Positions 44,506 through 62,120 of a stretch of DNA of 64,000 nt are shown here, piece after piece; within the stretch, counting starts at the first letter, position 1, and every line of letters starts with the position of its first letter. The notes below the pieces were generated by a model. That model had not been told where the DNA came from. It worked only from the letters and a program-made list of their open reading frames with translations, and ran no database searches. Where the stretch lies: positions 141,382 through 205,381 of the forward strand of contig JBJLBB010000006.1 of assembly GCA_045568435.1 (NCBI GenBank). The letters run 5' to 3'. Position numbers and translations under genes: made by a program. The stretch is from Candidatus Poseidoniaceae archaeon (GTDB taxonomy: Archaea; Thermoplasmatota; Poseidoniia; Poseidoniales; Poseidoniaceae).

Positions 44506-44514
44506 AATTTCACC

Positions 44515-45529: not shown

Positions 45530-46826
45530 TGTTATCCCTCTTGGTTATCATCTTCTTCGTTAGACGTTGCTTCATTTGAATTGGTCGGTGGTTCGTTAGA
45601 AGTTTCCGATTCGTTATTGGATATGAATATTTAGTATGTGCCATGGATTCATTGAAAATACTCTCTGGTAGTGGAACAAAGCCTACTTCTGAAATAATCT
45701 CTTGTCCTCGTGAACTGTAACCAAATTCCAGGAAAGGTAGAACCTTGGCCCAAGATGAATTATCAATGTTGAGATATATTTCTCTTGCGAGAGGAAAATA
45801 GGTTTGATTCTTAATTGACGAAACGGTCGGATGTATTACGTCTTCAATGCCGTCCGCTGCACTGTGGGTTAAATTGGCAGATATTGGCACAGAATGGAGG
45901 ACGGATTGGTGTGCTTCATAGTAAGAATAACCGAAAAAGCCTATCGCAGCGCCGTCTTGTGAAACCCCGTTGACAATGACGTTGTCGTTGGCGCTGTTTT
46001 GATAACCATTACCGCGTTGAGATGCAAAGGCTTCCACTGGGTAATCTCTTTCGCCAGCAAAACACTTGGTACAGAATACCATTTCGCCAAAGTATTCATA
46101 AGTACCAGATTGTAAATCCGGGCCCCAGAGTGATATTTCTTGGTCCAAACAATCGCTTGTATCGCCCAAATCCTTCCACTCACGAACTCCATCATCATCG
46201 TTATTTGGGGTCACGCTTGAAAGATCAAGACCGCCAAATTGTGAATAAACTAAGTCGCTTTCACTCCAATCTGAATAAATCCAGCGTAATTGTGCAACGC
46301 TGAGGCCGCCAATTGATTGTATACAACGGTCAGCATCACCGCCGCGGGCAACAATGAGGGTTACGCCGTCCATGGCAATTGGCATTTGGGTGAGAACGAT
46401 ATCGCTTGGTTTACAAGAAAAATACCTGGTACCAGATTCGAGAGTTGCCTCGATTGGTTTGAATGTTCGACTCATTGAACCAATATCGACATGGTCATTA
46501 GAGGTAGAGCAAACTGCAGAAGCCCCCACTCCCGAGCCGCCGCTGGCAACTGAGACTTGGATAGAGCCAATTTCTTCCCTAAAGCCCTCTGCCCATCCAG
46601 TTGCTAGCGGATACACAGTCGAAGACCCAGCGATCCTTATATTGCCACCAGATTGTTCGATTTGAGTGCTTCCATCAGTTATTGTATAATCTCCATTAGA
46701 TTCTTGCTTGCCTTCATCATTGGAAATGCACCCTGACATCATGGTAAAAACTAGTAGAGCCATCATAGTGAAGCAACGGAAATTATACTTCTCCATAGTT
46801 GCGGTAGAATGGTCAAATAGATTCAT
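45522..46826 (-). CDS. pstS: Phosphate-binding lipoprotein PstS (single domain; C-terminal tail probably frameshifted)
   Basis: Lipobox MSGC, IAGSSTVYP, SGGSGVG, DIGSMSR, SGTYEYF, IGFFGYSYY, YFPLAREIY and VGFVPL. Confidence 0.9.
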   Translation of the reverse strand: MNLFDHSTATMEKYNFRCFTMMALLVFTMMSGCISNDEGKQESNGDYTITDGSTQIEQSGGNIRIAGSSTVYPLATGWAEGFREEIGSIQVSVASGGSGVGASAVCSTSNDHVDIGSMSRTFKPIEATLESGTRYFSCKPSDIVLTQMPIAMDGVTLIVARGGDADRCIQSIGGLSVAQLRWIYSDWSESDLVYSQFGGLDLSSVTPNNDDDGVREWKDLGDTSDCLDQEISLWGPDLQSGTYEYFGEMVFCTKCFAGERDYPVEAFASQRGNGYQNSANDNVIVNGVSQDGAAIGFFGYSYYEAHQSVLHSVPISANLTHSAADGIEDVIHPTVSSIKNQTYFPLAREIYLNIDNSSWAKVLPFLEFGYSSRGQEIISEVGFVPLPESIFNESMAHTKYSYPITNRKLLTNHRPIQMKQRLTKKMITKRDNNE

Positions 46827-46939
46827 ACCCCGCCAATAGAATATTTAGTAATATTGAGATATAATTATCAAAATATAGTTTCTATGCATGTTGGTAGTAT
46901 AACCGAGCCTGTTAGTCGTAGATACCTAAAAAAATAGGA

Positions 46940-48436
46940 GTGACTAAAATGAAAATAAACGAGAGAGAAAAATTTGAAAAAGCGGTAAGTCCGGTAATTG
47001 CAACGATTTTGATGGTTGCGATAACTGTAGTGTTATCTGGCGTACTCTATGTATGGGCTGCAAACCTAGCAGAAACCAACACAGACGGTGATTTGAGCCT
47101 GTATAACTTCAGTGTCCGAGATGCGCCTGGTAGCCCTACTAGCGGTGCAACCGATGACTTAGTAATTGTAACAATGGATATTGGTGAGGAAACTGGTTGG
47201 GCTTCAGTAATTGTCAAACTGTCTATTGACGGTGCGGCATCAAGTACCTGTGCAAACCCTGGCTCAACAACCGGAGTTTGTGTAGTAACCGAGACCAGTG
47301 CAAATGATGGTGGTTGGCAAGTTGGAGAATCTGTCACCATATCAGAGAATTCAGTAGATCTTTGTAGCAGCGAAGTCTGTGAGATTACTGTTACTATCCT
47401 TAATAGTAGAGAAGGAACAACTCTAGACACCTCAACCACAACCTCTGAAGGTGACTCAGCTGCTAGCAGCGGTGGCTCTACAAACGGTGGCACAGGTGAT
47501 AACACTGGTGGCGACACTGGTGGATCTACTGGAGCACCTGCCTGTATTGCGAATGAGGTTTCAGTAACTGAGGCACATGCAGATGGAGATAGTGCTGTTG
47601 ATCCATCTACAGGCGTTTTATTTGATGACGATTACATCGAATTATACAATAGTGGTGCAACATGCTCCATGGATGGAGTTTTGATGTACGATTCTTCTGG
47701 AATGGAGAATGATGGTACTACTTTTGCTATGGATCTTGCTAGCGGATACACTTTGTTCCAGAAGAATGACAACGCAGTAAAAGATGGTACTGACGGATTA
47801 TTTGGTTTCGGGCTAGGTAAGGGCGGAGATTCTGTCAGCCTTGATTTCGATGCTGATGGCACTCCTGAGCAGACATTTGTTCTACCATCTTACTCCGATA
47901 ACGGTGCTGCTGAAATCTGTAATGGAGTAATTCAACCGACCGGCCCAGGTGCAGAAACCCCGGGTTCAGCCAACAACTGTCATGCAACTGTCGCAATTAC
48001 CGAGGTTGCTAACAAAGGCAGTTCTGGAGTTTGTTTATTCAATGATGATGGTTCAATGGACGGTACCGCAGACTGGGTAGAAATCTGGAATTATGGTGCA
48101 ACAGATGTTGATCTAAGTGGATTTATTCTTCATGATGACAAAGGTGCGGGTGATTCAAAGGCATTTGGCCTATCAGGAACTATTGCTGCAGGCGACTATA
48201 TGTTGTTATGTAATGATGACTCTACACAAGGTGTGTTACAATTTGCCTTTGGTATCGGCGGCGATGATACTGTAACCTTGACTGATGGAACCAATGAAAT
48301 CTGGACTTCTGGAGCTCTCCCTGAGGCTGATTGTGAAGCAGACGCTGCATGTAATCCTGATGATGTCTATGCCATGGATGGTAAAGGCGCTTGGTCTTAT
48401 GTACCTGGTGCAGAAACCCCTGGTGCAGAAAACTAA
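46940..48436 (+). CDS. Archaeal type IV pilin-like protein (class III signal) with two C-terminal LTD-like domains
   Basis: KFEKA|VSPVIATILMVAITVVLSGVLYVW, Gly/Thr linker, then VTEAHA..DYIELYN and ITEVAN..DWVEIWN..DLSGF, each ending AETPG. Confidence 0.85.
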   Translation: MTKMKINEREKFEKAVSPVIATILMVAITVVLSGVLYVWAANLAETNTDGDLSLYNFSVRDAPGSPTSGATDDLVIVTMDIGEETGWASVIVKLSIDGAASSTCANPGSTTGVCVVTETSANDGGWQVGESVTISENSVDLCSSEVCEITVTILNSREGTTLDTSTTTSEGDSAASSGGSTNGGTGDNTGGDTGGSTGAPACIANEVSVTEAHADGDSAVDPSTGVLFDDDYIELYNSGATCSMDGVLMYDSSGMENDGTTFAMDLASGYTLFQKNDNAVKDGTDGLFGFGLGKGGDSVSLDFDADGTPEQTFVLPSYSDNGAAEICNGVIQPTGPGAETPGSANNCHATVAITEVANKGSSGVCLFNDDGSMDGTADWVEIWNYGATDVDLSGFILHDDKGAGDSKAFGLSGTIAAGDYMLLCNDDSTQGVLQFAFGIGGDDTVTLTDGTNEIWTSGALPEADCEADAACNPDDVYAMDGKGAWSYVPGAETPGAEN

Positions 48437-48468
48437 TGCAAAATAAATCATATTTTGTCCCCAAAACT

Positions 48469-48517
48469 TGAGATTATGCTCGGGGGTTTCGGCCCCCGAG
48501 TATACTCATTTTATTTT
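48469..48517. terminator. GC-rich hairpin with TTCG loop and T-tract between convergent genes
   Basis: tatgctcggggg-tttcgg-cccccgagtata followed by ttttatttt. Confidence 0.75.
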
Positions 48518-48534
48518 GTGAAAACTAACCCTTG

Positions 48535-49617
48535 TTATGAAGCGATGTTAGTAATCCTTGAATCGAGGAAATTTTGAATCGCATTGTATGCTGCTTCAAC
48601 CCCGTTATCGAAGATTATTGTTGGTGATTCATTGTTAGCCGATAATAGTGCAGCGTCTAAATCATCTACAGTGATTTTACGCTTATTCAGCATTGCAACA
48701 TTGGCATAGGCTTTGCTCGCTAGCACTGCATTAATCTCTTGCTCAACTTGGCCGGGTTCTGGAATGCACAAAGATGGAAGCCCTAACACACCAACTTCAC
48801 CGAGTAGTTGGCTACCTGCGGTTTGATAAATTAAATCGCAACTAAGTAAATCATCAATAAAACCCTGATTGGAAATTGGGCAAGAAATGACATCTTCTGG
48901 TATTTCTTCGGGTTTATGGCCGTATAACTTTACTTTCAAACCGTGCTTTCTGGCATGATCGACTATTGCGTCAAAATGGCAAAGTACGCTTTTTCTCATG
49001 TAAGCAACAGCATGGGTGCCTTGTGGCTGCCATGCACCAGGGAAAAACTGCGGCCTAAGCATAGGGCCAACTAGATGTACATCATCTTTTTTTGGCTCTA
49101 AATTAAAGCCCTTTGAAATAACGCTTAAAGCAGGTCTTGGAGTGAAGATTTTGCACAATAACCTTACTGGAAAAAGTCGTGCTCGTTGGCTTATTGACAA
49201 CCTATCAGCAAGTTTTGTGTCAAGTGAGAAACGTTGGCTGTTGAAGGAGATAATTGGTTTATCGAGCGTTTTTGCTGCTCTGGCAAATGTCGGTTCAAAA
49301 TCTGAGATTAAAGCATCAGGCTGATAGTGTTGTAATTGCTTTATACAATCCTTGACTCTGTTACGATGGCCTTTGATGAATTTAGCAGTAGCATAGGCAG
49401 TGCCAAAGTAGGATATTCCTCGTTTCCCCAGTACAAATCTTGGGGTTTCTAGATGAGTCACTGATTCGGCTCCGTACCGCTTCTCTAACAAATCTACTGC
49501 ATCGCCACAAGTAAAGAACTGTACGCTGTGGCCGGCTTCAATCAGTCGGTCTGCTAAACCGATAGCACGAGTAGTATGCCCCCTGCCTTCGCCTGCTAAG
49601 GCATAAGCGATATTCAT
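48535..49617 (-). CDS. GT-B glycosyltransferase, MJ1255/VC2487-like (GT28-related)
   Basis: YALAGEGRGHTTR, ISDFEP, TAGSQLLGE and P.PGQVEQEINA. ATGA overlap with the upstream metallophosphoesterase. Confidence 0.85.
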   Translation of the reverse strand: MNIAYALAGEGRGHTTRAIGLADRLIEAGHSVQFFTCGDAVDLLEKRYGAESVTHLETPRFVLGKRGISYFGTAYATAKFIKGHRNRVKDCIKQLQHYQPDALISDFEPTFARAAKTLDKPIISFNSQRFSLDTKLADRLSISQRARLFPVRLLCKIFTPRPALSVISKGFNLEPKKDDVHLVGPMLRPQFFPGAWQPQGTHAVAYMRKSVLCHFDAIVDHARKHGLKVKLYGHKPEEIPEDVISCPISNQGFIDDLLSCDLIYQTAGSQLLGEVGVLGLPSLCIPEPGQVEQEINAVLASKAYANVAMLNKRKITVDDLDAALLSANNESPTIIFDNGVEAAYNAIQNFLDSRITNIAS

Positions 49618-50519
49618 ACAATCACCTCGGCAGCACGCTCGATATTCGGCTCTAATTCATCGAAATCAAGATTGAATTCTGCTTCGAAGGATGGTTGATT
49701 GCTGGCACTTTGTTTCGCTCTTTCTCTCAGTAGTGAAATTGTTGAGATTTTCGGTGAATACTCTAGGATTTCCATTGTTCCATCCATTGCTTCTGCGATT
49801 GCGGTACAAGATTCCAACCAATCTCCGTCATTCCAATATTCTACGCCGTTTTTTACTCGGAATTCTGCTTTGTGAATATGTCCACAAACTACTCCATCAT
49901 ATCCGAGTCTCGCGGCTTCTCGTGTTACAGTATTAACATAGTTTTTGAATGTCCTGGAATTACTTTGCATCGCCCTTCTAGCAGCGGTTGCTAATGACCA
50001 CTGGGGCAGTTTTAGCAATCGCCTAGCCCAAGCAATAGGGCGGTTTATTTTCATCAATAATTGAACGCTAAAGTGGCCTAAGTGGCACAGCCAGCGATGG
50101 TTTTTGATAAATAAGTCAAACTCATCTCCATGTATTATCCATAGATTTCGACCGTCTGCAGTAGTGTGTTCTGCTTGATTTATTATTTCTATGCCATGAA
50201 TTTTTGTTGAACACCAATCGCGGAATGCCTCATCATGATTGCCGGGTATGTAGTAAATCTGAGTGCCTTTATTGGCTTTTGAAATCAAATTTTGTATTAT
50301 TAGATCTTCAGTTTCTGTCCAATGCCACTTCTTCCCTTTGCACCAGTGGTCAATAATATCACCAACAAGGTAGATTTTCTCTGCGTCATGAGATTGTAAG
50401 AAGGCTAACAGCTTATCGCTTTGAACGCCTTTAAGTCCAAGATGGCAATCTGAAATGAATAACGTTCGATAATGTGTGGCCTCTAGTAACAGAAATAGCG
50501 CCCCGTTTGGGCTAATCAA
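49614..50519 (-). CDS. PlcP/LpxH-like metallophosphoesterase (phospholipase C-like)
   Basis: YRTLFISDCHLG, YLVGDIID.W, YIPGNHDE, IHGDEFD, VVCGHIH and YWNDGDWLESCTA. Confidence 0.85.
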   Translation of the reverse strand: MISPNGALFLLLEATHYRTLFISDCHLGLKGVQSDKLLAFLQSHDAEKIYLVGDIIDHWCKGKKWHWTETEDLIIQNLISKANKGTQIYYIPGNHDEAFRDWCSTKIHGIEIINQAEHTTADGRNLWIIHGDEFDLFIKNHRWLCHLGHFSVQLLMKINRPIAWARRLLKLPQWSLATAARRAMQSNSRTFKNYVNTVTREAARLGYDGVVCGHIHKAEFRVKNGVEYWNDGDWLESCTAIAEAMDGTMEILEYSPKISTISLLRERAKQSASNQPSFEAEFNLDFDELEPNIERAAEVIV

Positions 50520-50574
50520 GGAGAATACTATATTTCACCCCAAAGAAAGTAAGTCGTAGTATATAGGATATATA

Positions 50575-51690
50575 TCAACCAAATCTCCCTGAAATATACC
50601 TAGCAGTCAATTCTTTTGATGGGTCGCCAAAAATTTTCGAGGTCTTGTCGAATTCAACTAGTCTGCCGAGGTACATGAAGCCGGTATAGTCACTTACACG
50701 TTGAGCTTGACTCATAGAGTGAGTAACAATAACCACTGTGAAATGTTTTTTCAGTTCCAAAATTAATTCTTCAATTTTTGCCGTAGCAATAGGATCTAAT
50801 GCTGAACAAGGTTCGTCCATAAGAATTACTTCGGGTTCAACTGCAATTGTTCTAGCAATACAAAGTCGTTGTTGTTGTCCACCGGATAGACTGGTGCCCA
50901 ACTCATGGAGTCTGTCGTTAACTTCGTCCCAAATTGCAGCACGTCGCAATGACTCTTCGACTATTTTATCCAACTCCCTCCTACTTGGGGTGTAATGAAG
51001 TCTAACGCCGTATGCGACATTTTCGTAAATTGATTTAGGGAATGGATTTGGTTTTTGAAATACCATGCCAACTCTTCGACGGATGGTAACCAAGTCAGCA
51101 CTACGCCCCATTATTTCCTCGCCGTCAAGTTCGACTGAACCGTCCACTTTACAAATTGAGATTAGATCATTCATTCGATTTAAACATCGCAATAAAGTCG
51201 ACTTACCGCAACCGGATGGGCCGATTAGAGCAGTCACTGAATTGCGTTTGAATGGGATGGATACATTGTAAATTGCTTGGGCATTGCCATAGTGTAAATC
51301 TAAGTCCCGAATCCACATATGAGCATCGCCATCGATTTCTAAATCTCTTGTTGAATCTGGTATTTCTTCATGAATATCAGAATCATCGCTCATTTCATCC
51401 GGTAATGATGCTAAATATTCTTTGATGATTGTAGATTCCTCAAAATCTGCTTTGCCATCAATCTTAGACATTGAGGTTAAGATACCTCGAATTTGAGATT
51501 TTTTAGGCTGTTCCGAATCGTTAGAGAGCAGTTGTTTTAGTTGAACGAAAAGTTGTTCCTCCTCGTCAGAAATTTCCCCGTCGGCCGCCATTAGCTCTTG
51601 CAATGCATTGAATAACGACTCATGATTATCACTAATCTCTGTCTCTTCAACGATTTCTTCATCTTCTGTGTTTTCTTGTTTTTTCGTCAT
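50575..51690 (-). CDS. pstB: Phosphate ABC transporter ATPase with a ~120-aa TerB-like N-terminal extension
   Basis: [56 protein letters not shown] and YISGRFG. Confidence 0.96.
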
Positions 51691-54600
51691 GTGCTTGAAT
51701 ACCTCCTAAAGTGTGCACGGAGTAAAATTGCTGCTGAGTTGACAATAACTAAAGTACCTAACAACACGATTGAAGCGCCAGCAGCTGCGACTTTAAAGCC
51801 CATTTTTGGCATATCTGTCCAGCGATATACTTGAACTGGTAATACGGTGTAAAATCCTCTATCATTAGAGTCTGGTCCAACATATTCTGCCGGATCTGCC
51901 GACATTGGGCCTCGGTCAGCCCATAATGGAATGTTTTGTAAGTGAGGTTCAATACCAGGGAACCAACTAGCAAATCCGTCTAACGATGGAGTATGCTGAT
52001 ATGATACGTAAAAGAAGGCGTCTGGTTCAGTAAATACTGAGGCAACTGCGCCAACCAAAATAAGAGGTGCTGCCTCCCCCATAATTCTTGACATGGCTAA
52101 AATAGTTCCAGTCATCATTCCAGGCATTGCATGTGGCAATACATGGTCTTTAGTCACCTGCCATTTGGTACAGCCTAAACCAAATGCTGCATTTCGTAAT
52201 GATGGTGGAACTGCCCTGAGCGCCTCTTGTGAAGAGATTACAATTGTAGGCATAGCCATCGTTGCCATGGTCATACCAGCGGTCATCACTGTACCCCCCA
52301 ATCCTAGACCAATTCCTCTATCAGTCAAAAAGAGGGCTAATCCAAATAACCCGAATACAATCGCTGGAACTCCAGCAAGGTTAGTAATTAGAGCTTGAAT
52401 TCCTCTTCGGAACGAATTATTTGGTGCATACTCTTCTAGCCAAATTGCTGCGCCAATTGAAAGGGGAATGGCAAACAACATCGTGTATCCCACAACGTAG
52501 ACGCTACCCCAAAATGCCGCCCTTAAACCCGCTTTATACGGTTCTGATGAAGTATAATCTGACCATACAAATGGAATGTGAATATTCATTGGAATGACAA
52601 ACAATGCTATCACCATGACCACCAGTGCCGCAGTCATCCATCCCTCTCGTCCTTTGATTACTAATCCTAATCGGTCTTCCTGAATCTTGTTGGTTCGAGT
52701 CAATTGTAGTGCTGCAATTACCAACTTTTTAGCCCCGACAAACGACATCAATAATAGAACCGCCCCTATAATCCATCCTTCGATTAAAATCCATGAAAGA
52801 GCAATATACCAGACGATTACGTTTAACACCAACAACCCGAAATCTACCAATCCGTCTGCTAGAGGAACATTTTCATCAGGGCGCATCTTGATAATATCTG
52901 AAATTGCAGTAATTAAGGCGATAAAACTCATCAGTGATACTGCTCCACCAATCGTGAATGAGAATGGGACCAATAATACCGGTTGGTTTTCATTAAATGT
53001 ACTAATAAAGATAAGCAATGCTCCGATGAAAATAAGTAGCCTAATTAGAACACCAAATAATCTGCTTAATAGTTCTGAAGAAAATGATAACCATGACCAT
53101 GTTGTTTTCGTTCCAGTATCAAGTTCCTTTGAGCCTAATTTGATGAGCCCTGAACGTATTGATAACAGAGTCCGGTTTGGATATCTAACAACAAAAAACA
53201 TCCCAATTAATCCTAGGTAAGCAAACATCGGCAGATAAGGGTCTCGTTCTTCATACATTTCCAAGCCACTCTCATGTCGATTTGAGGCTCCGCAATATTG
53301 CAGCCATGATAACTGGTCAAGATATCTAATTGTATCACACCATTCTTCTGAGTCCATTATTTGATCTGATACTAGAGAAGTTGCTTTATCACAATCAAAG
53401 TCTGCATATAGTGGATCATTTTGTTTGTATGATTCTGAACATTTTTTCGAATACAGGTCAGAAGTAATTTGCCAAACAACAGGTATTGAGGAGATATTGG
53501 TTTCAGAATAATTAAACAACTTTGCGGCAGAAACCCCTTGCCCTTGAACCAAGTTAGCAATACCGTCTCCGTCGATATCTCTATCTTTTACTTCATCATG
53601 AACTCCATCGCCATCTGCATCGTTTAATGAAATCCATTCACTTATTGACATTGGTTGGTCGCCTGATTCATATCGGCCAACGCCTGGACAATATTTTGGA
53701 TGCCCGATAATAGGATTATCGTCATTATCCCCATCAATATCAAAGTCACAAACATCAATTGTTCCATCGTTATCCAAGTCATCGTCATCGATAAACCGGA
53801 ATTGGAACCAATCTGCGGGAGAGCCAAGAGCAAAATCGCCAACCTCTCTGTATGAGGTTTCTAGAGCGTCATTAGCCGGACCTGATGTTTGAGAATAAGT
53901 GACAGTGTAATTCATCGTATGGTTGACATATAGCCAATTTGTTGTTACCCCTCCTGACGGTTTTAAAGTGATGTGGGAGTCTCTCTCAAAGTAATCCCAT
54001 TGACCTAAAAAGCCGTTTGATAATGAAGGGGCAGCAATTCGACTAGATGTGCTAAAATACGGGCCTGATGGGTCATCCACTAGGTTGACATACACTACAT
54101 CGTGACCTGTATTAGAAATAGTTACTCGGAATTCGGTTGACCGGGTTTTGGTAAAAATTGATGCTTGGATTTCATAGCCATCGTCATTCTTGAATTCTCC
54201 TACAACTGCCTCACCAGTCAAACCTGCTGATAGGATGTATGCTGATGTTTCAGCCTTAGTACAGAATTCTGGGGTAAACATTCCAATATACTCTTGAGGC
54301 CGTAATATCTGTTCTGGAATTTGCTCAATGTCAAGTGGCCGCCATTCCCTATCTGTTTGGTTGTAAATCGAAGCAACTGTTATTTCTGAAAATTCGCCTA
54401 TTCCAGTTGCGCTTCTGTTAAGCCAAATATCTCCATCACCGCGGAAAATTGGCGTTACTGGTGTATAATGTAGCCATAATTTACCATCTTTGAATGCGTG
54501 CGGGTAATCATTGCTGAACTCTAATACACTGTTTAAGAATTCGTCGCCCTCTGCTGAATCCCAACGGAGACCTTTCCATACCCATTGGCTTCCATCATCT

Positions 54601-55379
54601 GAATCGACCCAATAATCTCCCATTCCTGGGGTTGGGGCATCTGGTCGCTTGAAGATGTTGATTCGCTCTTCTTCTCCGGTGCTGTAGCCCTTAGCTTCTT
54701 GACTAGTGCCGGGTAATATGTCTAGAACCTCCCATGGCTCAACAGGTTTGTAAGTATATTCTGCTAAGCCCTCATCACAAAGCGTACGCTCTAAGTCAGT
54801 ATCTAAATCCCATACAGATTGGCCGTCTATGCTGGTAAATATCTCTGAGTCATTTTCTATGCCCATAAAAGCACCGTTAGAGAGTATTGGTCTTGGATCG
54901 TAATTGTCTCGAGTTGCAGCATAGTGAGTTTCTTCCCATTTTGCCTCTATAGTGATATTAGACCGATCTATGCGTAAGTCTGCATCGAAGGGTTCAACCC
55001 TTGCATCGCTAGGTACTGACAAACCAGACGGTATTTGGTCGGTTCTGTACTCTACAGTATTGCCGGAACTATCTAACCAGCTTGTTATGCTGTACGCTTC
55101 CCAAGAAGGATTCCAACTTTCTGCTTTCCAAGAAAGTTGTGTTTGTGCAACTGGTTTACTGCCTTCTCTTATCCCATCAACTTCAATTTCTTGTTCAGGA
55201 ACAAATGCCTCCTCTGTGATTTGTGTCAATAGAGTAACAAGAGCTAAACCGCAAACTAAAGCAATTGAAATAAACACGGATTTGCCAATTTTGGCGGTTG
55301 CATAACGGCGCTTTAACGAGCGTTGTGGAAGCAGGGATGTACCGAAAAGGCCATTGTAATTGCTCAGTCGTTCTCTCAA
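51687..55379 (-). CDS. pstA: Phosphate ABC transporter permease PstA with a very large extracellular insertion (1230 aa)
   Basis: C-terminal core [47 protein letters not shown]-like and LPVQVY.W. Confidence 0.9.
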
Positions 55380-57883
55380 TCGTATTCCTCCCTAAAACGA
55401 GTCATTATCCTGTGTCCGACCAAGTTTAATGCTAATGTAATGACAAATAGGTATAATCCAACTGCGAACAATGAATAGTATGGTGTTGTGCCAATAGGTA
55501 ATTCTCCTCCGATTCGTTGAGCAATATATGCAGTCATTGTTTGGGCAGATCTAAACATATTGTCTGAATATACTGCTAATGTTCCCACAGACAATGTCAC
55601 GGCCATCGTTTCACCTATTGCCCTTGATAAAGCGAGAATAATTGATGCCAATATGCCAGAGAGGGCCGATGGAATTGTTACTCTTGCTGTTGTTTCGGTG
55701 GGTGTTGCACCAAGAGCATAAGACGCCTGTCTCAAATTATCTGGCACTGCTCTCAAGGCATCTTCAGATAATGAAGCGATTAGGGGTGTAATCATTATCC
55801 CCACTACAATTGCTCCGTTTAGAGGATTGAATAGTTGGGGTTCTTGCGAGATCCACCCACGTTCGAGAAAAGATATGCCAATGTCTACCACTATTGGAGC
55901 GATGACTACGAAAGCAAAAAATCCGTAAACTACAGAGGGGATGCCTGCTAATAGTTCAAGAATCGGTTTGACAATATTTGCAACTCTAGGGCTGGCATAT
56001 TCGGACAAAAATATGGCTGTACCGAGTCCTAATGGAATGGCGATGACCAATGCACCTAAAGCAACTTGCAAGGTTGTTTGCAATAGGGAATTTACTCCCA
56101 TATGGAGGTTTGAATCTACTGTGACTAAACCAACTGTTGTTATGTCTGTCTTCCACCATGTCTGTGTGAAGAATTCTCCCAATGAGCCATTAACTCGAGC
56201 AACTACATCCAGATACATCAAAAGAATGGTTATTACCACTGCAATATTCATTGCTAATCTACTATCTGAATCAACAACTGCATATTTGTTATTACCTGAT
56301 TGATTCCTTGAGTCGTTGATTACCTTAGCAAACATTAACACTGCTACGCAAAGTGCAATAGTATGACCTATTTGGATAAAATAGAAGTTTGTGAATGAGA
56401 TGAAAAGCGAGAATATCCCTAGACTTAAAGTGGAATAAGGTAACTTTCCATCTAATTTCCAGCCAAAAAATGTCAATATGAAGCTTAATGCAGAGACTAA
56501 AAGAATGATTGACAAACTAGGTGGAACTAACATAGACATGGTACTTATGGTTGCCAAAAATGCAAAATTTGTTCTTAACACTGGCACTATCAAGTCTATT
56601 CGTTCAACTGGAATGTTTACTAACCAGCGAGGTGAAAATATTGTCAATACTACAACTAGGATGGTAATTACTCCCAACAACAGACCGAATTTATCTCTAT
56701 CTGGAGTGTATGGGTTTGGATCGTAAGCATTAGGTAATCCATCACTATCGATATCTTCGTCAATGTTATTTGTGATGCCGTCGCCATCAATATCATTATC
56801 AAGAAGTTTGCCTGCTCCATCAACTTGCTCATTTGCTACTCCATCGCTATCATAGTCAAACGGCAAATCCTTAATTTCCAACTTTCTCAAATTATCGAGT
56901 AAGTCCTGATGTGAATTATTGCCCCCTGTTGTAAAGTCGCTGGTGAAAATATATGATGATACCTCGTTTGAAAAATTATATGATGATGAACTAAAACGTG
57001 AAATTGATTCGCCTTGAAAATCAAAGAATGAGTATTGATCAATGGTGAAGCATCCATCGCTGGTTTTCTCGATACCACGAATAACAAATTCATCTTCAAG
57101 TGACTGGAGTATTGGTTGCCCCTCATTATGACAAAGTGTTACTTGATTGATGTTTATCTCGTCGTTCTTTTTGTAATCGGTGTTATTTTCATAATATGGT
57201 AATAGCGCTTGGTATTCTTCCATGCTGAGTCTAGCACTATCATCACCAACCCATATCGTCACCCACCATTCTCGAGCGAGTTCGGGGTCTTGTTTGTGTA
57301 ATATCAAGGCATTTTCATTATCTGCAATGTATTGTAAGGGTATCTTTGGATTCTCGTCATCCCAATGCTCCGGGTTTTGATCAAAGTATTCAGATAAATA
57401 TGAACGTTCTGAATCTAATCTTGGTCCAACGATTATTGTCCCATCAGCAAGCTGAAAAGCACTGCCTTGTCTATCGCTATCGTCTGTATAGGTTCCGCTA
57501 CTAGAGTCCCACCCGTAGGTATCTATCATTGGGTCAGACAGAAAGACCATGTGTTCCATATCCCAATCAACTATACAAAAAGTGTCTAGCCACAGTGGGT
57601 CAGATAGTTTTCCATCGTCATATATTGCAGCGTCTTTGATACTTGCCTTCAAATCTTCATCCCAATCTTGAGGTGGGGTAAATGAGTCGGCACCGCATGC
57701 AAATCCTCGATAGAATTTCGAACCGGATTCAAATAATACAAACACGATGCCGGCAGTGATCATTACCACGGTAGCAGCAAGGGCAAATAAGACGATACCT
57801 GGGGCACTTTCTTCTACTCTTCCTCGCCAACGCATAACTTGCCCCCCAACATTCTGCGTTGTGTTATGTGATGGCAGAGGCAT
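55376..57883 (-). CDS. pstC: Phosphate ABC transporter permease PstC with a large extracellular insertion (835 aa)
   Basis: Core GLGTAIFLSEY, KPILELLAGIPSVVYGFF, SEDALRAVP, SRAIGETMAV and LFAVGLYLF. The start is uncertain (possibly MRWRG). Confidence 0.9.
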   Translation of the reverse strand: MPLPSHNTTQNVGGQVMRWRGRVEESAPGIVLFALAATVVMITAGIVFVLFESGSKFYRGFACGADSFTPPQDWDEDLKASIKDAAIYDDGKLSDPLWLDTFCIVDWDMEHMVFLSDPMIDTYGWDSSSGTYTDDSDRQGSAFQLADGTIIVGPRLDSERSYLSEYFDQNPEHWDDENPKIPLQYIADNENALILHKQDPELAREWWVTIWVGDDSARLSMEEYQALLPYYENNTDYKKNDEININQVTLCHNEGQPILQSLEDEFVIRGIEKTSDGCFTIDQYSFFDFQGESISRFSSSSYNFSNEVSSYIFTSDFTTGGNNSHQDLLDNLRKLEIKDLPFDYDSDGVANEQVDGAGKLLDNDIDGDGITNNIDEDIDSDGLPNAYDPNPYTPDRDKFGLLLGVITILVVVLTIFSPRWLVNIPVERIDLIVPVLRTNFAFLATISTMSMLVPPSLSIILLVSALSFILTFFGWKLDGKLPYSTLSLGIFSLFISFTNFYFIQIGHTIALCVAVLMFAKVINDSRNQSGNNKYAVVDSDSRLAMNIAVVITILLMYLDVVARVNGSLGEFFTQTWWKTDITTVGLVTVDSNLHMGVNSLLQTTLQVALGALVIAIPLGLGTAIFLSEYASPRVANIVKPILELLAGIPSVVYGFFAFVVIAPIVVDIGISFLERGWISQEPQLFNPLNGAIVVGIMITPLIASLSEDALRAVPDNLRQASYALGATPTETTARVTIPSALSGILASIILALSRAIGETMAVTLSVGTLAVYSDNMFRSAQTMTAYIAQRIGGELPIGTTPYYSLFAVGLYLFVITLALNLVGHRIMTRFREEYD

Positions 57884-57929
57884 TGGACTCTTTTATGTTC
57901 CTAAATATACTATATAGTCATACATAGTT

Positions 57930-57968
57930 GAACCAAGTGGAAGGGGTTGCCCCCTTCGCACTTGATTC
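57930..57968 (-). terminator. Long hairpin with GCAA tetraloop between pstS and pstC (partial terminator or mRNA-stabilising element)
   Basis: Minus strand gaatcaagtgcgaagggg-gcaa-ccccttccacttggttc, beginning 28 nt after the pstS stop. Confidence 0.7.
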
Positions 57969-57995
57969 GGAGGACTTATGTTGACTCTATAGTAA

Positions 57996-60244
57996 TCAGC
58001 TGAAGTCGCCTTCAGCGGAAACTCTACGCCACATCTCTTGCCATGTTGCGTCATCTAGTGGAACGTATCCTACTTCAGAAATCTCGGCGGTTCCGTCTCC
58101 TGAGTAAGCCCAGATTAGGAATGCTGATACTTCGTCCCAAACGTCGTTGTTGACATTCATGTACAGTGGCCTAGAGAGAGGTGCGTAAGATCCGTCTCTT
58201 ACTGTACCTGCGTCTGGAATTACTGCAGTTTCTGTAGTGTCGCCCATACCGTATACATTGTCGTTTGCGACGCCTGCTGCTGATAGAGTTGCTTGATTTT
58301 CTGCATAGTAAGCAAAGCCGAAGTAACCGATTGCAGTTTCATCACCGTTTAGAGTGTTTACCAGTACGTTGTCGTCCGATGATTGAGTTCCTGCTCTAAA
58401 TCCTTGAGATGCTTCATCAAGTATCGACTCGAAGAAGTACTCGTAGGTGCCAGAGGCAGCGTCTGGGTACGCAAGAACAATTTCTGCGTCTGGACAGTTT
58501 GCATTAAGCTCTGACCACTTGTGGGTACTGTCATCGTTGTCACCGTTTGGTGTTACAGAGGACATATCGAGTCCTGCTGCACTTAACTCGGATGCGGTTT
58601 CAGCAGAGAAGATCCATCGTAGTTGAGCAACTGTTAGGCCGCCCATTTCCTGGATACACATATCAGCTGCACCGCCTTTCTTGGTAACCACGGACAATCC
58701 GTCTACAGCGACTACAAGTTGGGTTACAGTGATTGAAGTGTCGCCAACAGCACACTCAACTTGGCCGTTTTCGTCAACGCCGTCTTGTGTTTCTGTTGCC
58801 TTCCAATTTCTGGACATGTCTCCAATATCTACTTGGGAGCCTTTTGCTGAGTTAGCACAAACTCTACCTGCACCTGAAGATGAACCGCCAGATTCTACTG
58901 TGATTGTAGTATCGCCACAAATTTCTGTATATGCTTCAGCCCAAGCTTCCGCAAGTGGCAGAACCGTTGAGGACCCTGCGATTGAGATACTTTGTGCGCC
59001 ACTACAGAATGCGTCGTCAAAGATATCTGAATTTCCACCAGCAGTCATTCCTTTCAGGTATGAATATCTGCTAAAGAACATCTGAGCTTCTTGGTTGTCG
59101 TTTAGGCTAACATATCCTACTTCTCCAACCTTGTCTTGGCCCATTTCGGTGAACAATCCGTACGCCATGAATGGTAGTGTGTTTTCAAGTGAGGCTGCAT
59201 CGATTAATAGGTTCATGAACAATGGCCTGGACAATGGGTTGTAAGATCCGTCTCTAACTGATGTAGCGTCAGGAGCAACCATGTTACCTGCATCGTTTAG
59301 GACTGGTGATGCAGTTAGAGTTGCTAGGTTTTCTTGGTAGTAAGCATATCCGAAGTAACCGATTGCGGTCTCGTCACCGATTAGAGCGTTAACTAGAACA
59401 TTGTCGTCACTGGATTGTTGTCCAGATCTGAATCCTTGTTCAGCTTCGTGTAGAATTGCTTCAAAGAAGTACTCGTAAGTACCCGATGCTGCATCTGGGT
59501 ATGCTAGATTAATTTCAGCATCTGGACAGTCGCAGATAGTTCAGACCACTTGTGGGTGCTGTCGTCGTTGTCGCCGTTAGGGGTGACAGTTGACATGTCT
59601 AAACCTGCTGTTGAAAGTTCGGCTGCAGTCTCTGCGGAGAACATCCAGCGTAGTTGGTCAGGGGTTAGACCGCCCATTCCGTTTACACAGGTATCAGCAG
59701 CGCCGCCCTTCTTCATAACTACGGAAAGGCCGTCAAATGCAACTACAATTTGTCGTGCACTTCTTGATGTGTCTCCAACCAGACAATCCATAGTGTAACC
59801 ATCTTCGTCGATGGCTCTCTCGGTGTCTTTCCAGTCACGAGACATGTCACCAATGTCTACTGGTGTACCCTTTGCAGAGTTTGCACAAACTCTACCTGCG
59901 CCGGAGGAAGATCCACCAGATTCGACTGTGACGGTTACGCCTTCACAAGCCTCTGTGTAATATTCTGCCCATGCTTCTGCAAGTGGTAGAACGGTAGATG
60001 AACCGGCGATGCTAATTGAACCATCTGGCCCACATACAATGGTGCCGACATCGATGGTGCCGTCATCTACTGTTGAGTTGGTGCCGTCATCTACTGTTGA
60101 GTTGGTGCCGTCCCCAGTAGTGGTACCAGGGTCAGTGTTGTCGTCTTTGTCATCGTCATCACTTCCTAGACATCCGGCCATAGCTGAGACCATCATAAGT
60201 AAGATCAGTGTTATTGCTTTCATTTTTATGCTTTGAGTTTTCAT
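57996..60244 (-). CDS. pstS: Tandem double-domain PstS lipoprotein (~750 aa), split by a 1-nt frameshift near 59532
   Basis: ORFs 59504-60277 and 57996-59282 join if one base is restored in tct gc[n] gac tgt cca. The bridge reads CPDAEINLAYPDAASGTYEYFF...IGYFGYAYY, matching the second domain. Lipobox MAGC. Confidence 0.88.
60056..60112 (-). repeat. 24-bp coding tandem repeat (DGTNSTVD) in the PstS linker
   Basis: GGTGCCGTCATCTACTGTTGAGTT x2 plus a partial copy; each unit encodes an N-S-T sequon. Confidence 0.9.
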
Positions 60245-60299
60245 AGTATGCTCTCTCTCGATTCGGGGGTAGTTCACATAGTATTGTGTACTGCCTCCA

Positions 60300-60345
60300 C
60301 AAACTAATTATTTCACTATATTAATATATAGGCATATATATAATT
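60300..60345. promoter_or_regulatory. AT-rich divergent promoter region for pstS and the phoU regulator, with a CTATAT-N4-ATATAG inverted repeat
   Basis: CTATAT at 60316-60321 and ATATAG at 60326-60331, with flanking TATA-like tracts. Confidence 0.5.
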
Positions 60346-60391
60346 GGGGTGTCATGGGTATCTATCCGGAGTCATACGGAGGTGCGTTAAC

Positions 60392-61434
60392 ATGGAGATT
60401 GTGGGCAATATCGAGTATCGGAAACTACAGGTTACTGGTGGTTCTACATTCATTGTTAGCCTGCCAAAAAAATGGATCAGAAATAACGGTCTGTCGTCCG
60501 GAGACGTAGTAGGGGTAGAATGTTTAGCAAGTGGGGAAGTACAAATTACTCCTCACGAAGTAAAACAAAATAAACGCAGAGTATCTATTGACTTAAGCAA
60601 GTTCCCTAAAAGTGCGCTTTACGATTACCTTGTTGGCGCATATGTTTGCGGGGCTGATGTGATTACTATCACGATGAAAGATGGAATCCCAATTCAACAA
60701 AAAAGAATCATTAGAAGATTTCTTAGAGATACAAGAGGAATGGAGGTATCAGAAGATGAAGTTAAGAAAATATCGATTGTTTCACTACTAAATCCAAATG
60801 AATTGCCACTACAAACAAGTTTGAATCGAATGTATTTACTAGTAACAAGTTTGGTAGAAGATACACTGGGAGTACTTGCTGGGGACGATAAGGATATTAT
60901 TTCTGATTATGAAGACAGGGAACGGCAAATTGATGCTAGACGTTTACTTATCCATCGGCAAGTTGCTATGGCCCTACATTCGCCACAAATTGAAAGGGGT
61001 TTGGGTATTGATAGATATCAAGCTATGGAGCATGCAATCATGGCCAATTACTTAGAAAGGATGGGCGATCACGCGCAAACCTTTGCTAGTTTAGTTGATG
61101 GTGACCGAAACCATAAGATTGATTTTGTCGGAAAGTCAACTGCCAATGGCAGCGATACCAATATGGTTATCTTCACTTAGGAGCGATTATAAGAAACACA
61201 TACTCAAAAGATATTTCTGTCCTAATAAAAGCAAAACAAGACTTGACTAAAGCAACTGCCGATTTAGAGCATCATGAGAACGAATTGATGTCTTCACGGG
61301 CACGCGCAACCAGTGTTCTTTCTGAATTTAGAATATCTGAAATCGTTAGAAGATTATGTGGATATAGTATAGACCTTACAGAGACTCTAATCAATATGCT
61401 TATTGCAGGTAAGACCGAGGCCTATGGTAAGTAG
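60392..61434 (+). pseudogene. phoU: AbrB-PhoU archaeal phosphate uptake regulator, interrupted by two frameshifts (~61100 and ~61180)
   Basis: RKLQVTGGSTFIVSLPKKW (AbrB) and ERMGDHA. The protein continues in shifted frames as QLPMAAIPIWLSSLR, then AIIRNTYSKDISVLIKAKQDL...RRLCGYSIDLTE. GGAGGTG precedes ATG 60392. Confidence 0.8.
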
Positions 61435-61442
61435 GTGAGAAT

Positions 61443-62120
61443 ATGGTGCCGCCAATAAGAACAAATTTAGATAGTCGAATGAATACACTAAGGTCAGCGA
61501 TTTCTGACTTCTTTGGTTCAATCATTTCATCATACAATTTAGCAGTCAATGGAATAAAAAATTTCAATGAAGGGGACTTAAAAGAAATTTACAAATTAAG
61601 AAAAAGTGCTCAAAGACAAGCCGAGCATCTCTCACAAGATTTACTATTAGTGCTAACTCTTAACCAGCCCCTATTACAAGATTTGAGGATCATTGCTTCA
61701 TATCTAAGGGGCGTAGACGTAATTGAAAGACTCGCTCGTCATGCAAGAGATATCGCTGATGCACAGACTCTATGGCATGATATTGAAAATACTGATACGC
61801 CTCTGTTATCCGAATTATCCTCACTTGGGCATGAGACAGTAGCATTGATTGAAATAATGCGTGATTGCCTGGTAGACGAAAAAGGGGTGCCTGAAGAGTT
61901 GTTGAAAGAAAAGTGGATGTCTATTTCCGAATTATTTTCTAATATTTCAACCGAAATACTTGAAGTTCAAGGTCAATCTATCGGCGGCCGCGAAGGGAGA
62001 ATTTTGCTTAATACCATGGCTAAACGATTTGAACGCTCATCATATAATTTGATGAGGCTTGCAGACTTATGGCATTATGCGCTTGAAAACGAATGGATAC
62101 ATCTAGAATCTGTAGCATAA
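61443..62120 (+). CDS. phoU: PhoU-domain protein
   Basis: LNQPLLQDLRII...DVIERLARHARDIA and a second repeat KRFERSSYN. AGGTGA upstream. Confidence 0.8.
   Translation: MVPPIRTNLDSRMNTLRSAISDFFGSIISSYNLAVNGIKNFNEGDLKEIYKLRKSAQRQAEHLSQDLLLVLTLNQPLLQDLRIIASYLRGVDVIERLARHARDIADAQTLWHDIENTDTPLLSELSSLGHETVALIEIMRDCLVDEKGVPEELLKEKWMSISELFSNISTEILEVQGQSIGGREGRILLNTMAKRFERSSYNLMRLADLWHYALENEWIHLESVA

Follow-up and report, generated by a model that had tools for sequence, protein, structure and literature searches.

A close described relative of the transporter analysed here is the PstSCAB importer of E. coli, whose structure has been solved by cryo-EM (9k3s, 9k3x and 9k3y; PMC12976172). According to that study, R220 of PstA and R237 of PstC have roles in phosphate (Pi) selectivity, the P3 loop of PstA extends into the PstS cleft, and the docking of PstS is transient, its capture having needed cross-linking. 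In MalFGK2 the P2 domain of MalF holds MalE throughout the cycle, with a Kd of 7-22 uM (PMC6906923), and GlnPQ carries two binding domains in tandem on its permease (10.1101/2020.12.19.423572). N-terminal extensions of PstA and PstC are described as DUF3333 and DUF3708, mostly in Alphaproteobacteria (PMC3597751). The organism considered here belongs to the Marine Group II archaea, which are reported to be uncultured and among the most abundant archaea of the surface ocean (PMC6461757). A literature search, which did not extend to supplements such as the transporter tables of that paper, found no paper describing the proteins presented below.

The window, a stretch of 64,000 nucleotides from the genome of a Poseidoniaceae archaeon, contains a Pst operon on the minus strand in the order pstS-pstC-pstA-pstB, with PhoU-type genes near it (Table 1). 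This is the sole high-affinity phosphate ABC importer of the organism, and each of its subunits is enlarged; the genome (94.6% complete) has one Pst permease pair only. The initial annotation had reported a PstA of 1230 aa and a PstC of 835 aa, and both frames were found intact at the coordinates it gave, overlapping by 4 nt. The start of pstC is probably M17 (position 57835), which gives 819 aa, because in the contigs of two runs there is one more base upstream of this codon, a 92% identical PstC cluster (P0022) is 819 aa long and the Atlas record begins at residue 17. The neighbourhood of the operon is one of phosphorus scavenging: it has a metallophosphoesterase, a third PstS-like gene and the two PhoU-type genes, and it also encodes a surface protein of 1488 aa whose domains are of the choice-of-anchor I and phytase-like types.

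PstA and PstC each consist of a complete canonical six-helix permease behind an N-terminal module, in the order K/R tail, anchor helix, acidic ectodomain, extra helices and 6-TM core. PstA reached 204.7 bits against NCBIfam TIGR00974 (cut-off 193.45), its residues 923-1225 corresponding to profile positions 23-271 of 272, and PstC reached 245.9 bits against TIGR02138 (cut-off 196.45; residues 548-830); on the whole proteins, Pfam matched BPD_transp_1 alone. The cores match the solved E. coli chains (E 4.6e-19 for PstA and 3.9e-14 for PstC), and both Pi-selectivity arginines are kept in the alignment to E. coli. Canonical PstA proteins (283-287 aa) align from their residues 1-3 to giant PstA from 891-897 onward, and canonical PstC aligns to residues 542-835 of the giant one. 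The six-helix cores are complete, as had been proposed. The initial annotation had also described inserts of ~660 and ~345 aa: the sizes stand (about 660 and 337 aa), but the alignment with canonical PstA shows N-terminal extensions and not insertions within the core. Inside the PstA core itself, the P3-loop insertion was present in 3/3 giant rows, and in none of the three canonical and two medium rows.

In the hydropathy profile of PstA the anchor helix is followed by a 710-residue non-hydrophobic stretch (125 D+E, 53 K+R) and by helices from residue 767 on, and in PstC by 337 residues (71 D+E, 20 K+R) and helices from 395 on. The extra helices previously suggested before the cores are thus seen in the profile, about five in PstA and three to five in PstC. 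A weakly hydrophobic segment at ~716-734 of PstA was counted as the fifth because the topology requires it, and an odd number of extra helices returns the chain to the cytoplasm before the N-in core. A Pfam search with the extra helices of PstA and PstC (E<=10 for PstC) gave nothing.

Table 1. Coordinates of the Pst genes and of their predicted parts in the window.
Feature	Coordinates	Strand	Remarks
pstB with N-terminal TerB-like extension of about 125 aa (51316-51690)	50575..51690	-	TIGR00972 389.1 bits, residues 125-371
pstA, giant type	51687..55379	-	1230 aa, TTG start; TIGR00974
Canonical PstA core (residues 913-1230)	51690..52643	-	R1098 aligned with E. coli R220
~50-aa insertion in PstA P3 loop (TM5-TM6)	51864..52019	-	alignment
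PstA extra TM helices (residues 716-912; five)	52644..53234	-	parity and positive-inside rule
PstA ectodomain (residues 57-715)	53235..55211	-	about 660 aa, pI 4.14
PstA Cys-rich membrane-proximal segment (residues 616-715)	53235..53534	-	invariant C647, C663, C681, C696
PstA DxDxDG block (residues 531-615)	53535..53789	-	two similar double-loop units; invariant C544, C564
Two units of phage-tail-fibre-type repeat (PstA residues 226-335)	54375..54704	-	exhaustive protein search
PstA anchor helix TM0 (residues 29-56)	55212..55295	-	K/R-rich tail before helix
pstC, giant type	55376..57883	-	835 aa as longest ORF; TIGR02138
Canonical PstC core (residues 542-835)	55379..56260	-	R754 aligned with E. 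coli R237
PstC extra TM helices (residues 395-541; three to five)	56261..56701	-	hydropathy
PstC ectodomain (residues 58-394)	56702..57712	-	337 aa, pI 4.05
PstC DxDxDG block (residues 341-394)	56702..56863	-	invariant columns; 65% median identity
PstC anchor helix TM0 (residues 24-57)	57713..57814	-	hydropathy; 78% median identity, 16 homologs
pstS, lipobox-bearing, tandem	57996..60277	-	two PBP_like_2 domains in the assembly, frameshift near 59529-59531
PhoU-domain genes	60344-61180 and 61443-62120		beside the Pst operon

An extracytoplasmic location of the ectodomains, as assumed in the initial annotation, is supported by several features of the sequence: the K/R tails, a net charge across homologs of about -76 (PstA) and about -40 (PstC), invariant Cys (8/8 in the PstA ectodomain, over 18 aligned rows), a helix parity compatible with an N-in core, and conserved Dx[DN]xDG loops. 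On this evidence the cytoplasmic alternative does not apply. The N part of the PstA ectodomain is 66% covered among homologs; in PstC residues 58-215 are conserved and residues 216-340 form a lineage-specific insert, missing in most homologs. Both ectodomains are under purifying selection: dN/dS is 0.14 and 0.11 for that of PstA (two same-genus genomes) and 0.06 for that of PstC, with 0.02-0.05 for the cores.

We searched Pfam, PHROG, PDB and Atlas with the PstC ectodomain and found no match, and profile searches with both extension pieces returned no phosphatase, nuclease or binding-protein family. Except for a repeat at PstA 226-330 (see below), the ectodomains do not correspond to already-described common domains, and both permeases have predicted ectodomains of 340-660 aa without recognisable family. 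One could suppose that they are degenerate PstS-like binding-protein domains fused to the permeases, since an 880-aa protein made of an anchor helix, SBP_bac_1 and BPD_transp_1 (a sugar binding-protein/permease fusion) shows that such an architecture is used in this genome. However, hhalign of a 21-row PstS-domain alignment against both extension alignments gave a probability of 0.1-0.2%, binding-protein families had no match at E<=10, and a separate multi-domain pstS is encoded upstream, so that we consider this origin extremely improbable.

The DxDxDG motifs quoted in the initial annotation are present in both proteins, with Dx[DN]x[DN]G sites at 534, 545, 587, 599 and 601 of PstA and at 343, 362, 364 and 377 of PstC. 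The motif aspartates and glycines are invariant in 18 rows (PstA) and 17 rows (PstC), and the PstA block (64% median identity) has an internal similarity score of 53 against a shuffle maximum of 43. The likeness to thrombospondin type 3 repeats consists of runs of Dx[DN]xDG loops and, in PstA, of a flanking Cys pair. The term 'thrombospondin-type-3-like' therefore holds as a resemblance of the loop runs but not as membership of Pfam TSP_3 (PF02412, gathering threshold 25 bits), as all scores were below threshold: the PstC ectodomain had 7.4 bits (E 4.7), the PstA ectodomain of the window had no TSP_3 match, and homologs matched in 7/18 rows (best E 0.054) and 11/17 rows (best E 0.02). PDB sequence searches with the blocks gave nothing but sub-threshold EF-hand loops (E at least 0.16). 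We infer that the ectodomains fold with bound Ca2+, which seawater contains at ~10 mM. The Dx[DN]xDG motif is described as binding Ca2+ in many unrelated folds (PMC3123361).

DxDxDG-like motifs are widespread in the surface proteins of this genome, where 46 of the 1551 ORFs (at least 150 aa) have at least three of them, mostly proteins of 700-2900 aa with 1-2 hydrophobic segments, and genes of the thrombospondin type are reported to be a widespread kind of adhesion gene in Poseidoniales (PMC6461757). Because such modules are common in the surface proteins of this genome, a generic structural or envelope role is equally plausible for the DxDxDG block. The Ca-loaded blocks, which are the best-conserved parts of the ectodomains, would then tie the transporter into the surface protein layer or set a distance, with no specific role towards PstS. 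As an account of the ectodomains, we regard envelope anchoring or spacing as possible but unlikely. HMMs of the PstA ectodomain segments, DxDxDG block included, match no other protein of the genome at E<=0.01, so that the PstA block is not a shared cassette, and anchoring leaves the matching enlargement of PstS, of the PstA P3 loop and of PstB unexplained.

The conserved putative Ca-binding motifs would also suit a direct capture of ligands, in which the Ca-loaded acidic ectodomains would concentrate substrate near PstS, either by docking phosphatases or by binding organic phosphorus, polyphosphate, Ca-phosphate particles or phosphate ion pairs themselves; the phosphorus-scavenging neighbourhood of the operon points in the same direction. 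However, the ectodomains match no phosphatase, nuclease or binding-protein family, and the neighbour genes are not kept beside other giant operons: in the fetched flanks of 13 giant loci, the metallophosphoesterase and the glycosyltransferase were found in 3/13 and the phytase-like gene in 0/13. This role appears quite improbable.

The repeat in the PstA ectodomain was examined by an exhaustive search in 1.84 billion proteins, in which the matches reached E 3.8e-20 (P0060) and 2.3e-18 (P0061); 43 of the 53 matches were confined to the repeat stretch, with 1-9 stretches per protein. Of the 15 matched proteins scanned, three have Phage_T7_tail or Prophage_tail domains, and 188 of 263 candidate stretches from viral contigs encode relatives of one tail-fibre-like repeat protein; no solved structure covers the repeat, and no Pfam model was found for it. 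PstA 226-330 aligns with two repeat units of the tail fibres of uncultured podovirus-type viruses. In these fibres an adaptor domain similar to T7 gp17 is followed by 4-9 matched stretches, whereas in PstA the two units are inside a membrane protein. These matches speak for a virus-related function, in which host-virus conflict would maintain the ectodomain as a receptor for viruses, as a decoy or as a module traded with them. It should be considered, however, that the repeat is only about 105 of the 660 ectodomain residues, that a dN/dS of 0.11-0.14 indicates purifying and not diversifying selection overall, and that the matching viruses are without any link to this host, GenBank phages giving only four weak matches (E 5e-4). 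Such a function seems very improbable.

Since the adjoining pstS is mis-assembled (a collapsed repeat and a frameshift), errors do occur at this locus, and we evaluated whether the giant permeases could be an artefact of misassembly or of gene calls run together, or else a pseudogene in decay. Two studies, with independent runs, each gave a single contig (9460 and 9443 nt) that covers positions 50500-59301, with 4 and 7 differences, and spans pstB, pstA and pstC unbroken, so that misassembly, a concern of the initial annotation, does not apply; at least 0.90 of the sampled words were present in 16 DNA runs from 5 studies. Moreover, uninterrupted frames of 1090-1403 aa are present in 17 of 40 Pst-bearing genomes of the order, and the ectodomains are kept by purifying selection. 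We give an artefact next to no credit. The same architecture was found in 17 PstA and 34 PstC protein clusters, the longest 16 PstA clusters measuring 1159-1284 aa. The giant type is present in 17-18 of the 40 Pst-bearing Poseidoniales genomes sampled, more than any other Pst type found there; no free-standing canonical 300-aa Pst permease was seen in this sample. Among the genomes sampled the N-terminal module is confined to Poseidoniales, and the cores of the giant-type PstA proteins all group in one clade.

The partners of the permeases are enlarged as well. Pfam PBP_like_2 was found in both ORF pieces of pstS, and the stop-to-stop frames fit one gene. Depth over 59106-60098 is ~2x in three DNA runs, an extra T at 59529/59531 is present in other runs, and a 95% identical relative (G034) has an intact three-domain pstS of 1099 aa, to which positions 59169-60064 of the window align twice; the pstS of the window is probably a collapsed three-domain gene. 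All the giant-type loci with pstS in reach (12/12, the window counted) have 2-3 PstS domains, whereas at medium-type loci with a complete pstS a single domain was found (7/7). As for PstB, the TerB match is present in 8 of 14 aligned rows (best E 1.5e-5), and in most lineages giant permeases come with this TerB-like domain.

Our preferred reading, which we advance tentatively, is that the ectodomains form a Ca-stabilised extracellular scaffold keeping the tethered multi-domain PstS at the gate, because giant permeases always come with a PstS of 2-3 domains and with a longer P3 docking loop in PstA. Both ectodomains would lie next to the face of the PstCA core where PstS docks and would hold or guide the tethered PstS domains; in a cell with no outer membrane, a loaded PstS domain would thereby always be near the gate, by analogy with MalF P2 holding MalE and with the tandem binding domains tethered to GlnPQ. 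A precedent within this genome is the 880-aa fusion protein mentioned above, in which another binding protein is kept at its permease behind an N-terminal helix. The 12 giant loci are however not independent, because their PstA cores belong to one clade, and the co-occurrence of giant permeases and multi-domain PstS could reflect the common descent of one operon type. Against a scaffold stand also the large lineage-variable parts of the ectodomains, unexpected for a precise docking surface, and the PstS chains, which have 0-1 DxDxDG motifs and no recognisable partner module for the ectodomains. The scaffold could be part of a new architectural class of ABC importer built by Poseidoniales, a self-contained 'portable periplasm', in which the Ca-loaded ectodomains of PstC and PstA would make a cage over the gate and a lipid-anchored chain of three PstS domains would work inside or along it, so that phosphate caught by any of these domains would pass to the translocator and not be lost by diffusion; regulation would be coupled to this through the extra helices and the TerB-like domain of PstB, all as an adaptation to nanomolar phosphate without an outer membrane. 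We regard this wider proposal as rather unlikely.

The Pst type found most often in the order sample differs from the textbook transporter in each of its subunits, a difference that bears on how Marine Group II archaea compete for scarce phosphate. For structural biology, it presents type I importer permeases with predicted ectodomains of no recognisable family. If the ectodomains manage tethered binding domains, they would show how high-affinity capture is done by cells without a periplasm, and would be a much larger version of the MalF-P2 principle.

Compared with known systems, the operon has the same family assignment and the same gene order as E. coli PstSCAB. However, E. coli PstA (296 aa) and PstC (319 aa) have six helices each and no ectodomain. 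The giant PstA (1230 aa) has about six helices more and an ectodomain of 660 aa, and the giant PstC (819-835 aa) four to six helices more and an ectodomain of 337 aa; in addition, the P3 loop is longer, PstS has several binding domains and PstB is extended by an N-terminal domain. With DUF3333 and DUF3708 there are other cases of Pst permeases with N-terminal additions, but neither matched the extension pieces of the window PstA and PstC (E<=10), DUF3333 is absent from the genome at E<=0.01, and its profile of 151 positions is far smaller than the giant-type extensions. With GlnPQ and other fused binding domains the system shares the presence of several binding domains near one translocator; here, however, the PstS domains, two or three in number, are on a lipid-anchored chain of their own, and by profile comparison the ectodomains are not binding-protein folds. 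MalF P2 is likewise a domain that a type I importer permease carries outside the cytoplasm, folded and close to the docking face, where the Pst ectodomains would stand too, and MalF also has extra N-terminal helices. P2 is an Ig-like domain of about 186 aa (residues 91-276) between TM3 and TM4, whereas the Pst ectodomains are 2-3.5 times larger, are carried by both permeases and lie in an N-terminal extension.

The initial annotation had described giant PstA and PstC permeases in the pst operon, and we confirmed both with the lengths and coordinates listed in the table. According to NCBIfam, PstA matches TIGR00974 at residues 923-1225 (204.7 bits, cut-off 193.45), PstC matches TIGR02138 at residues 548-830 (245.9 bits, cut-off 196.45) and PstB matches TIGR00972 at residues 125-371 (389.1 bits). 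A PDB sequence search with the PstA-family profile retrieved the solved E. coli chains PstA (E 4.6e-19) and PstC (E 3.9e-14); in the same profile alignment R1098 of PstA and R754 of PstC align with E. coli R220 and R237, which the accessible text of PMC12976172 gives as the determinants of phosphate specificity in E. coli. The source genome (2.10 Mb, 9 contigs, 94.6% complete) contains no second Pst permease pair, and this operon is therefore taken to encode the transporter in use and no redundant duplicate. For pstC, translation probably begins at M17, which would give a protein of 819 aa and leave 57835-57883 (minus strand) upstream of it; an extra C is found behind 57841 in two runs, the cluster closest to PstC has 819 aa, and the ESM Atlas record begins at residue 17.

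Features of the pst operon and its neighbourhood in the window
Feature	Coordinates	Strand	Remarks
Third single-domain PstS-like gene	45522-46826		
pstB	50575-51690	minus	371 aa
PstB N-terminal extension	51316-51690	minus	~125 aa; two helical DG-E motifs and an acidic linker
pstA	51687-55379	minus	1230 aa; TTG start; 4-nt overlap with pstC
Two repeat units, PstA 226-335	54375-54704	minus	match uncultured phage tail-fibre proteins
pstC	55376-57883	minus	835 aa
pstS	57996-60277	minus	
1488-aa surface protein	within 40039-50519 / 60344-62120		choice-of-anchor I, phytase-like and lamin-tail domains
Second lamin-tail protein; pilin-N plus lamin-tail protein; glycosyltransferase; metallophosphoesterase	within 40039-50519 / 60344-62120		
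Two PhoU-type genes	within 40039-50519 / 60344-62120		

A check of contiguity had been asked for in the initial annotation. Two contigs from different studies, one of 9460 nt and one of 9443 nt, each span 50500-59301 unbroken and show 4 and 7 differences, respectively; in a third run, two contigs together cover 52608-59301. For 16 DNA runs from 5 studies, the share of sampled words of 51687-60300 that is present is 0.90 or more. The PstA ectodomain retrieved 17 protein clusters at E<=0.001 (29-93% identity; the longest 16 have 1159-1284 aa and one is an 894-aa piece), and the PstC ectodomain retrieved 34 clusters of 567-827 aa. The unbroken contigs of independent studies and the recurring homologs rule out misassembly. 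In comparisons with two same-genus genomes (Nei-Gojobori), dN/dS was 0.14 and 0.11 for the PstA ectodomain, 0.06 for that of PstC, 0.07-0.20 for the extra helices and 0.02-0.05 for the cores; the ectodomains are thus under purifying selection, somewhat looser than in the cores. Given the contigs, the clusters and this selection, that the giant genes are an artefact is hardly credible. There is also a hint of transcription: two RNA-library runs, X17 and X18, contain 0.45 and 0.39 of the sampled words, and the X17 contigs include pstS, the pstS-pstC junction, parts of pstC and pstA, and pstB, with the provisos that such libraries may contain DNA, that contigs cannot rank genes and that uncovered bins carry no meaning. 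A scan for sigma-70 promoters and terminators returned 34 sites against 34.2 expected, under a model that is not applicable to archaea.

The additions had been described as inserts within the permeases. The intact core and the extra helices were borne out, but not the insertion: canonical Thermoplasmatota PstA proteins (283-287 aa) match giant PstA from 891-897 onward, starting at their own residue 1-3 and including the tail and TM1, and canonical PstC aligns with PstC 542-835, so that the additions are N-terminal extensions placed before complete cores. Hydropathy of PstA shows a helix at 29-56, then 710 non-hydrophobic residues (125 D+E, 53 K+R) and further helices from 767 on; in PstC a helix at 24-57 is followed by 337 residues (71 D+E, 20 K+R) and by helices from 395 on. 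The predicted extra helices are five in PstA, counting a weakly hydrophobic one at ~716-734, and three to five in PstC; an odd number is expected in PstA because the chain must regain the cytoplasm before TM1. All homologs carry a K/R-rich tail ahead of the first helix, the PstA loops 735-773 and 891-912 have a median of 5 K+R, and the median net charge across homologs is -76 for the PstA ectodomain and -40 for that of PstC. None of the eight cysteines of the PstA ectodomain (201, 373, 544, 564, 647, 663, 681 and 696) varies among 18 aligned rows whose identity spans 36-94%, which suggests disulfides. Taken together, tail, loop charge, net charge, helix number and cysteines indicate, at the level of sequence, that the large domains of both proteins are extracellular.

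The DxDxDG motifs reported earlier are present, with Dx[DN]x[DN]G sites at 534, 545, 587, 599 and 601 in PstA and at 343, 362, 364 and 377 in PstC. These blocks are invariant and are the best-conserved parts of the ectodomains (median identity 64-65%, against 37-52% for most others), while PstC 216-340 is missing in most homologs. The runs of motifs resemble thrombospondin type 3 repeats, but membership in Pfam TSP_3 was rejected, since every match is sub-threshold: TSP_3 was the sole Pfam match to the ectodomains at E<=10 (E 4.7, PstC), and scans of the individual members gave 7 of 18 rows (best E 0.054) and 11 of 17 rows (best E 0.02). A PDB sequence search with the DxDxDG blocks returned EF-hand loops at E>=0.16 or nothing meaningful. 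The earlier interpretation therefore holds in part, as far as the sequence features of extracellular, predicted Ca-binding domains are concerned, and what emerges is a functional-looking Pst core with conserved, outward-facing domains that are probably Ca-binding and, by prediction, disulfide-bonded. As rivals to the role proposed below, anchoring to the envelope through generic DxDxDG modules could explain these domains, though this is rather doubtful, and it appears unlikely that they capture phosphate species directly or serve as docking sites for phosphatases. As a separate observation, 46 of the 1551 ORFs of at least 150 aa in the source genome have at least three DxDxDG-like motifs, with a maximum of 39, and the majority of the 46 encode 700-2900-aa surface proteins with one or two hydrophobic segments; the surface proteome is therefore rich in Ca-motif proteins. 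Thrombospondin-type genes are widespread across the order, according to the available portion of PMC6461757.

An already known common domain was also looked for in the ectodomains, and no library (Pfam, PHROGs, PDB, ESM Atlas) recognises them. PHROGs gave no match at E<=0.1, ESM Atlas neither a usable match nor a model of either ectodomain, and the PDB sequence search with the extension profile matched the core alone. Extensions of the DUF3333/DUF3708 type were rejected, with no match to the ectodomains. The ectodomains might instead hide a cryptic binding protein, which is highly improbable, and this candidate was discarded at an hhalign probability of 0.1-0.2%. When the PstA and PstC extension alignments were compared by hhalign, the cores alone were related, and direct local alignment of the two ectodomains joined just their DxDxDG blocks, and this marginally, with a score of 74 where shuffled sequences reached at most 70. 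No further protein of the source genome was retrieved by HMMs of six segments of the PstA extension, and the PstC ectodomain, searched against proteins of 185-590 aa, found short-contig fragments and two weak motif matches only. A literature search that did not cover supplements (e.g. the transporter tables of PMC6461757) found no description of these giant Pst proteins.

One stretch of the PstA ectodomain does have relatives elsewhere. In the exhaustive search 43 of 53 hits matched PstA 226-330 alone, in 1-9 stretches per protein and with E down to 3.8e-20, and nine hits aligned in detail have 4-9 repeat units each; PstA therefore contains two copies of a repeat unit that otherwise occurs in the tail-fibre shafts of uncultured phages. 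Phage tail domains occur in 3 of 15 hits scanned, and one hit has a T7 gp17-like adaptor domain matching solved tail fibres. Relatives are encoded by 188 of 263 candidate stretches of viral contigs, and GenBank phages gave 4 weak matches. The PDB sequence search with this stretch returned nothing below E 0.43, and no Pfam model or solved structure covering the repeat was found. That the stretch has a virus-related role in PstA is, in our opinion, very improbable.

Survey of PstA lengths showed that the giant type recurs. Among 151 genomes from the order, 40 have a PstA match at E<=1e-30, and for the high-quality subset the figure is 19 of 59; types were assigned from the open frame around the match. 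The giant type (PstA 1090-1403 aa, PstC 700-838 aa) is present in 17 of these 40 genomes, 13 of family f1 and 4 of family f3; the medium type (PstA 578-676 aa, PstC ~450 aa) in 14; and a PstC-PstA fusion of 623-632 aa in seven, all f3. In one genome a truncated PstA frame accompanies a medium-type PstC, and in another a giant-type PstC alone was seen. Each of the 40 genomes has one Pst type, and none has a free-standing permease of ~300 aa. Medium-type PstA has a 140-aa loop and extra helices, and no similarity was found between its additions and the giant extensions. In the phylum sample PstA occurs in 145 of 251 genomes and its ectodomain in 8, namely the source genome and 7 of 30 from f1, with none in 17 from f3 or 203 from other families; the f3 giants of the order sample carry the ectodomain at 32-36% identity. 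Exhaustive search of 1.84 billion representatives gave only four full-length relatives, plus fragments. In a tree of 25 PstA cores, the deep part of which is unsafe owing to three long-branched rows, the 14 giant rows fall together in a single clade (support 99/93), inside which the f3 giants branch among those of f1 (97/99). Other Thermoplasmatota families have large frames of a different build, at least about ten among the matches listed for the phylum sample; the two examined (loci L007 of genome G331 and L008 of genome G203) are PstC-PstA fusions of 1081-1126 aa with a ~350-aa insert and no DxDxDG. We also observed that the medium-type PstA cores of L005 (genome G044, f1) and L028 (genome G137, f3) are nearly identical, with branch lengths of 0.01, which suggests a recent transfer or a binning error.

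Other components are enlarged in giant-type loci, 16 of which, window included, were examined. Ten of them (L011-L015, L019, L020, L022, L109/L115 and L110) encode a PstS with three PBP_like_2 domains, L018 and the window one with two, and in the remaining four (L009, L016, L017 and L021) pstS is cut off or out of reach. Where a medium-type locus includes a complete pstS, as seven do, the encoded PstS is always single-domain and divergently transcribed. The two-domain, frameshifted pstS of the window is probably a collapsed repeat: in G034, a relative of 95% identity, pstS is intact, begins with the same lipobox and encodes 1099 aa in three domains; window 59169-60064 has two separate alignments to this G034 gene, depth is about double over 59106-60098 in three DNA runs, and at the frameshift near 59529-59531 other runs have one more T (59529/59531). 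An N-terminal PstB extension of ~100-150 aa is present in 13 giant loci and absent in two f3 giants and in the medium type; TerB matches 8 of 14 aligned PstB rows (best E 1.5e-5). The docking loop P3 of PstA (TM5-TM6) is ~50 aa longer in all three giant rows compared with three canonical and two medium rows. Giant ectodomains thus go together with a tethered PstS of several domains and with an altered docking loop; this evidence is weaker than the number of loci would imply, because the giant operons share one ancestor and are not independent.

The surroundings of the operon (40039-50519 and 60344-62120) are devoted to phosphorus scavenging, and most of these neighbours appear not to recur next to other giant operons, as far as the fetched flanks reach. 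Separately, contig C8 of the source genome (42798-45440; 2299-4941 of locus L010) encodes an 880-aa sugar-type ABC permease with an anchor helix, SBP_bac_1 and a BPD_transp_1 core; this fusion adjoins a second permease, an ATPase, a carbohydrate-binding-module protein and an alpha-amylase.

We tentatively propose that the ectodomains flank the docking face, where they may retain the PstS domains or steer them. Loops P1 and P3 of the E. coli transporter enter the PstS cleft, and docking there is so transient that its capture took cross-links (both from the accessible text of PMC12976172). Ectodomains placed beside the docking face would keep hold of tethered PstS domains, and a loaded domain would then be likelier to reach the gate, given that the cell lacks the outer membrane that would otherwise keep binding proteins nearby. 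Of known systems the nearest functional parallel is MalF P2 (residues 91-276, Ig-like), which, according to the part of PMC6906923 available, reaches ~3 nm and binds MalE with a Kd of 7-22 uM all through the cycle. A second analogy to the proposed handling of PstS is offered by the tandem binding domains of GlnPQ, as described in the available text of 10.1101/2020.12.19.423572.
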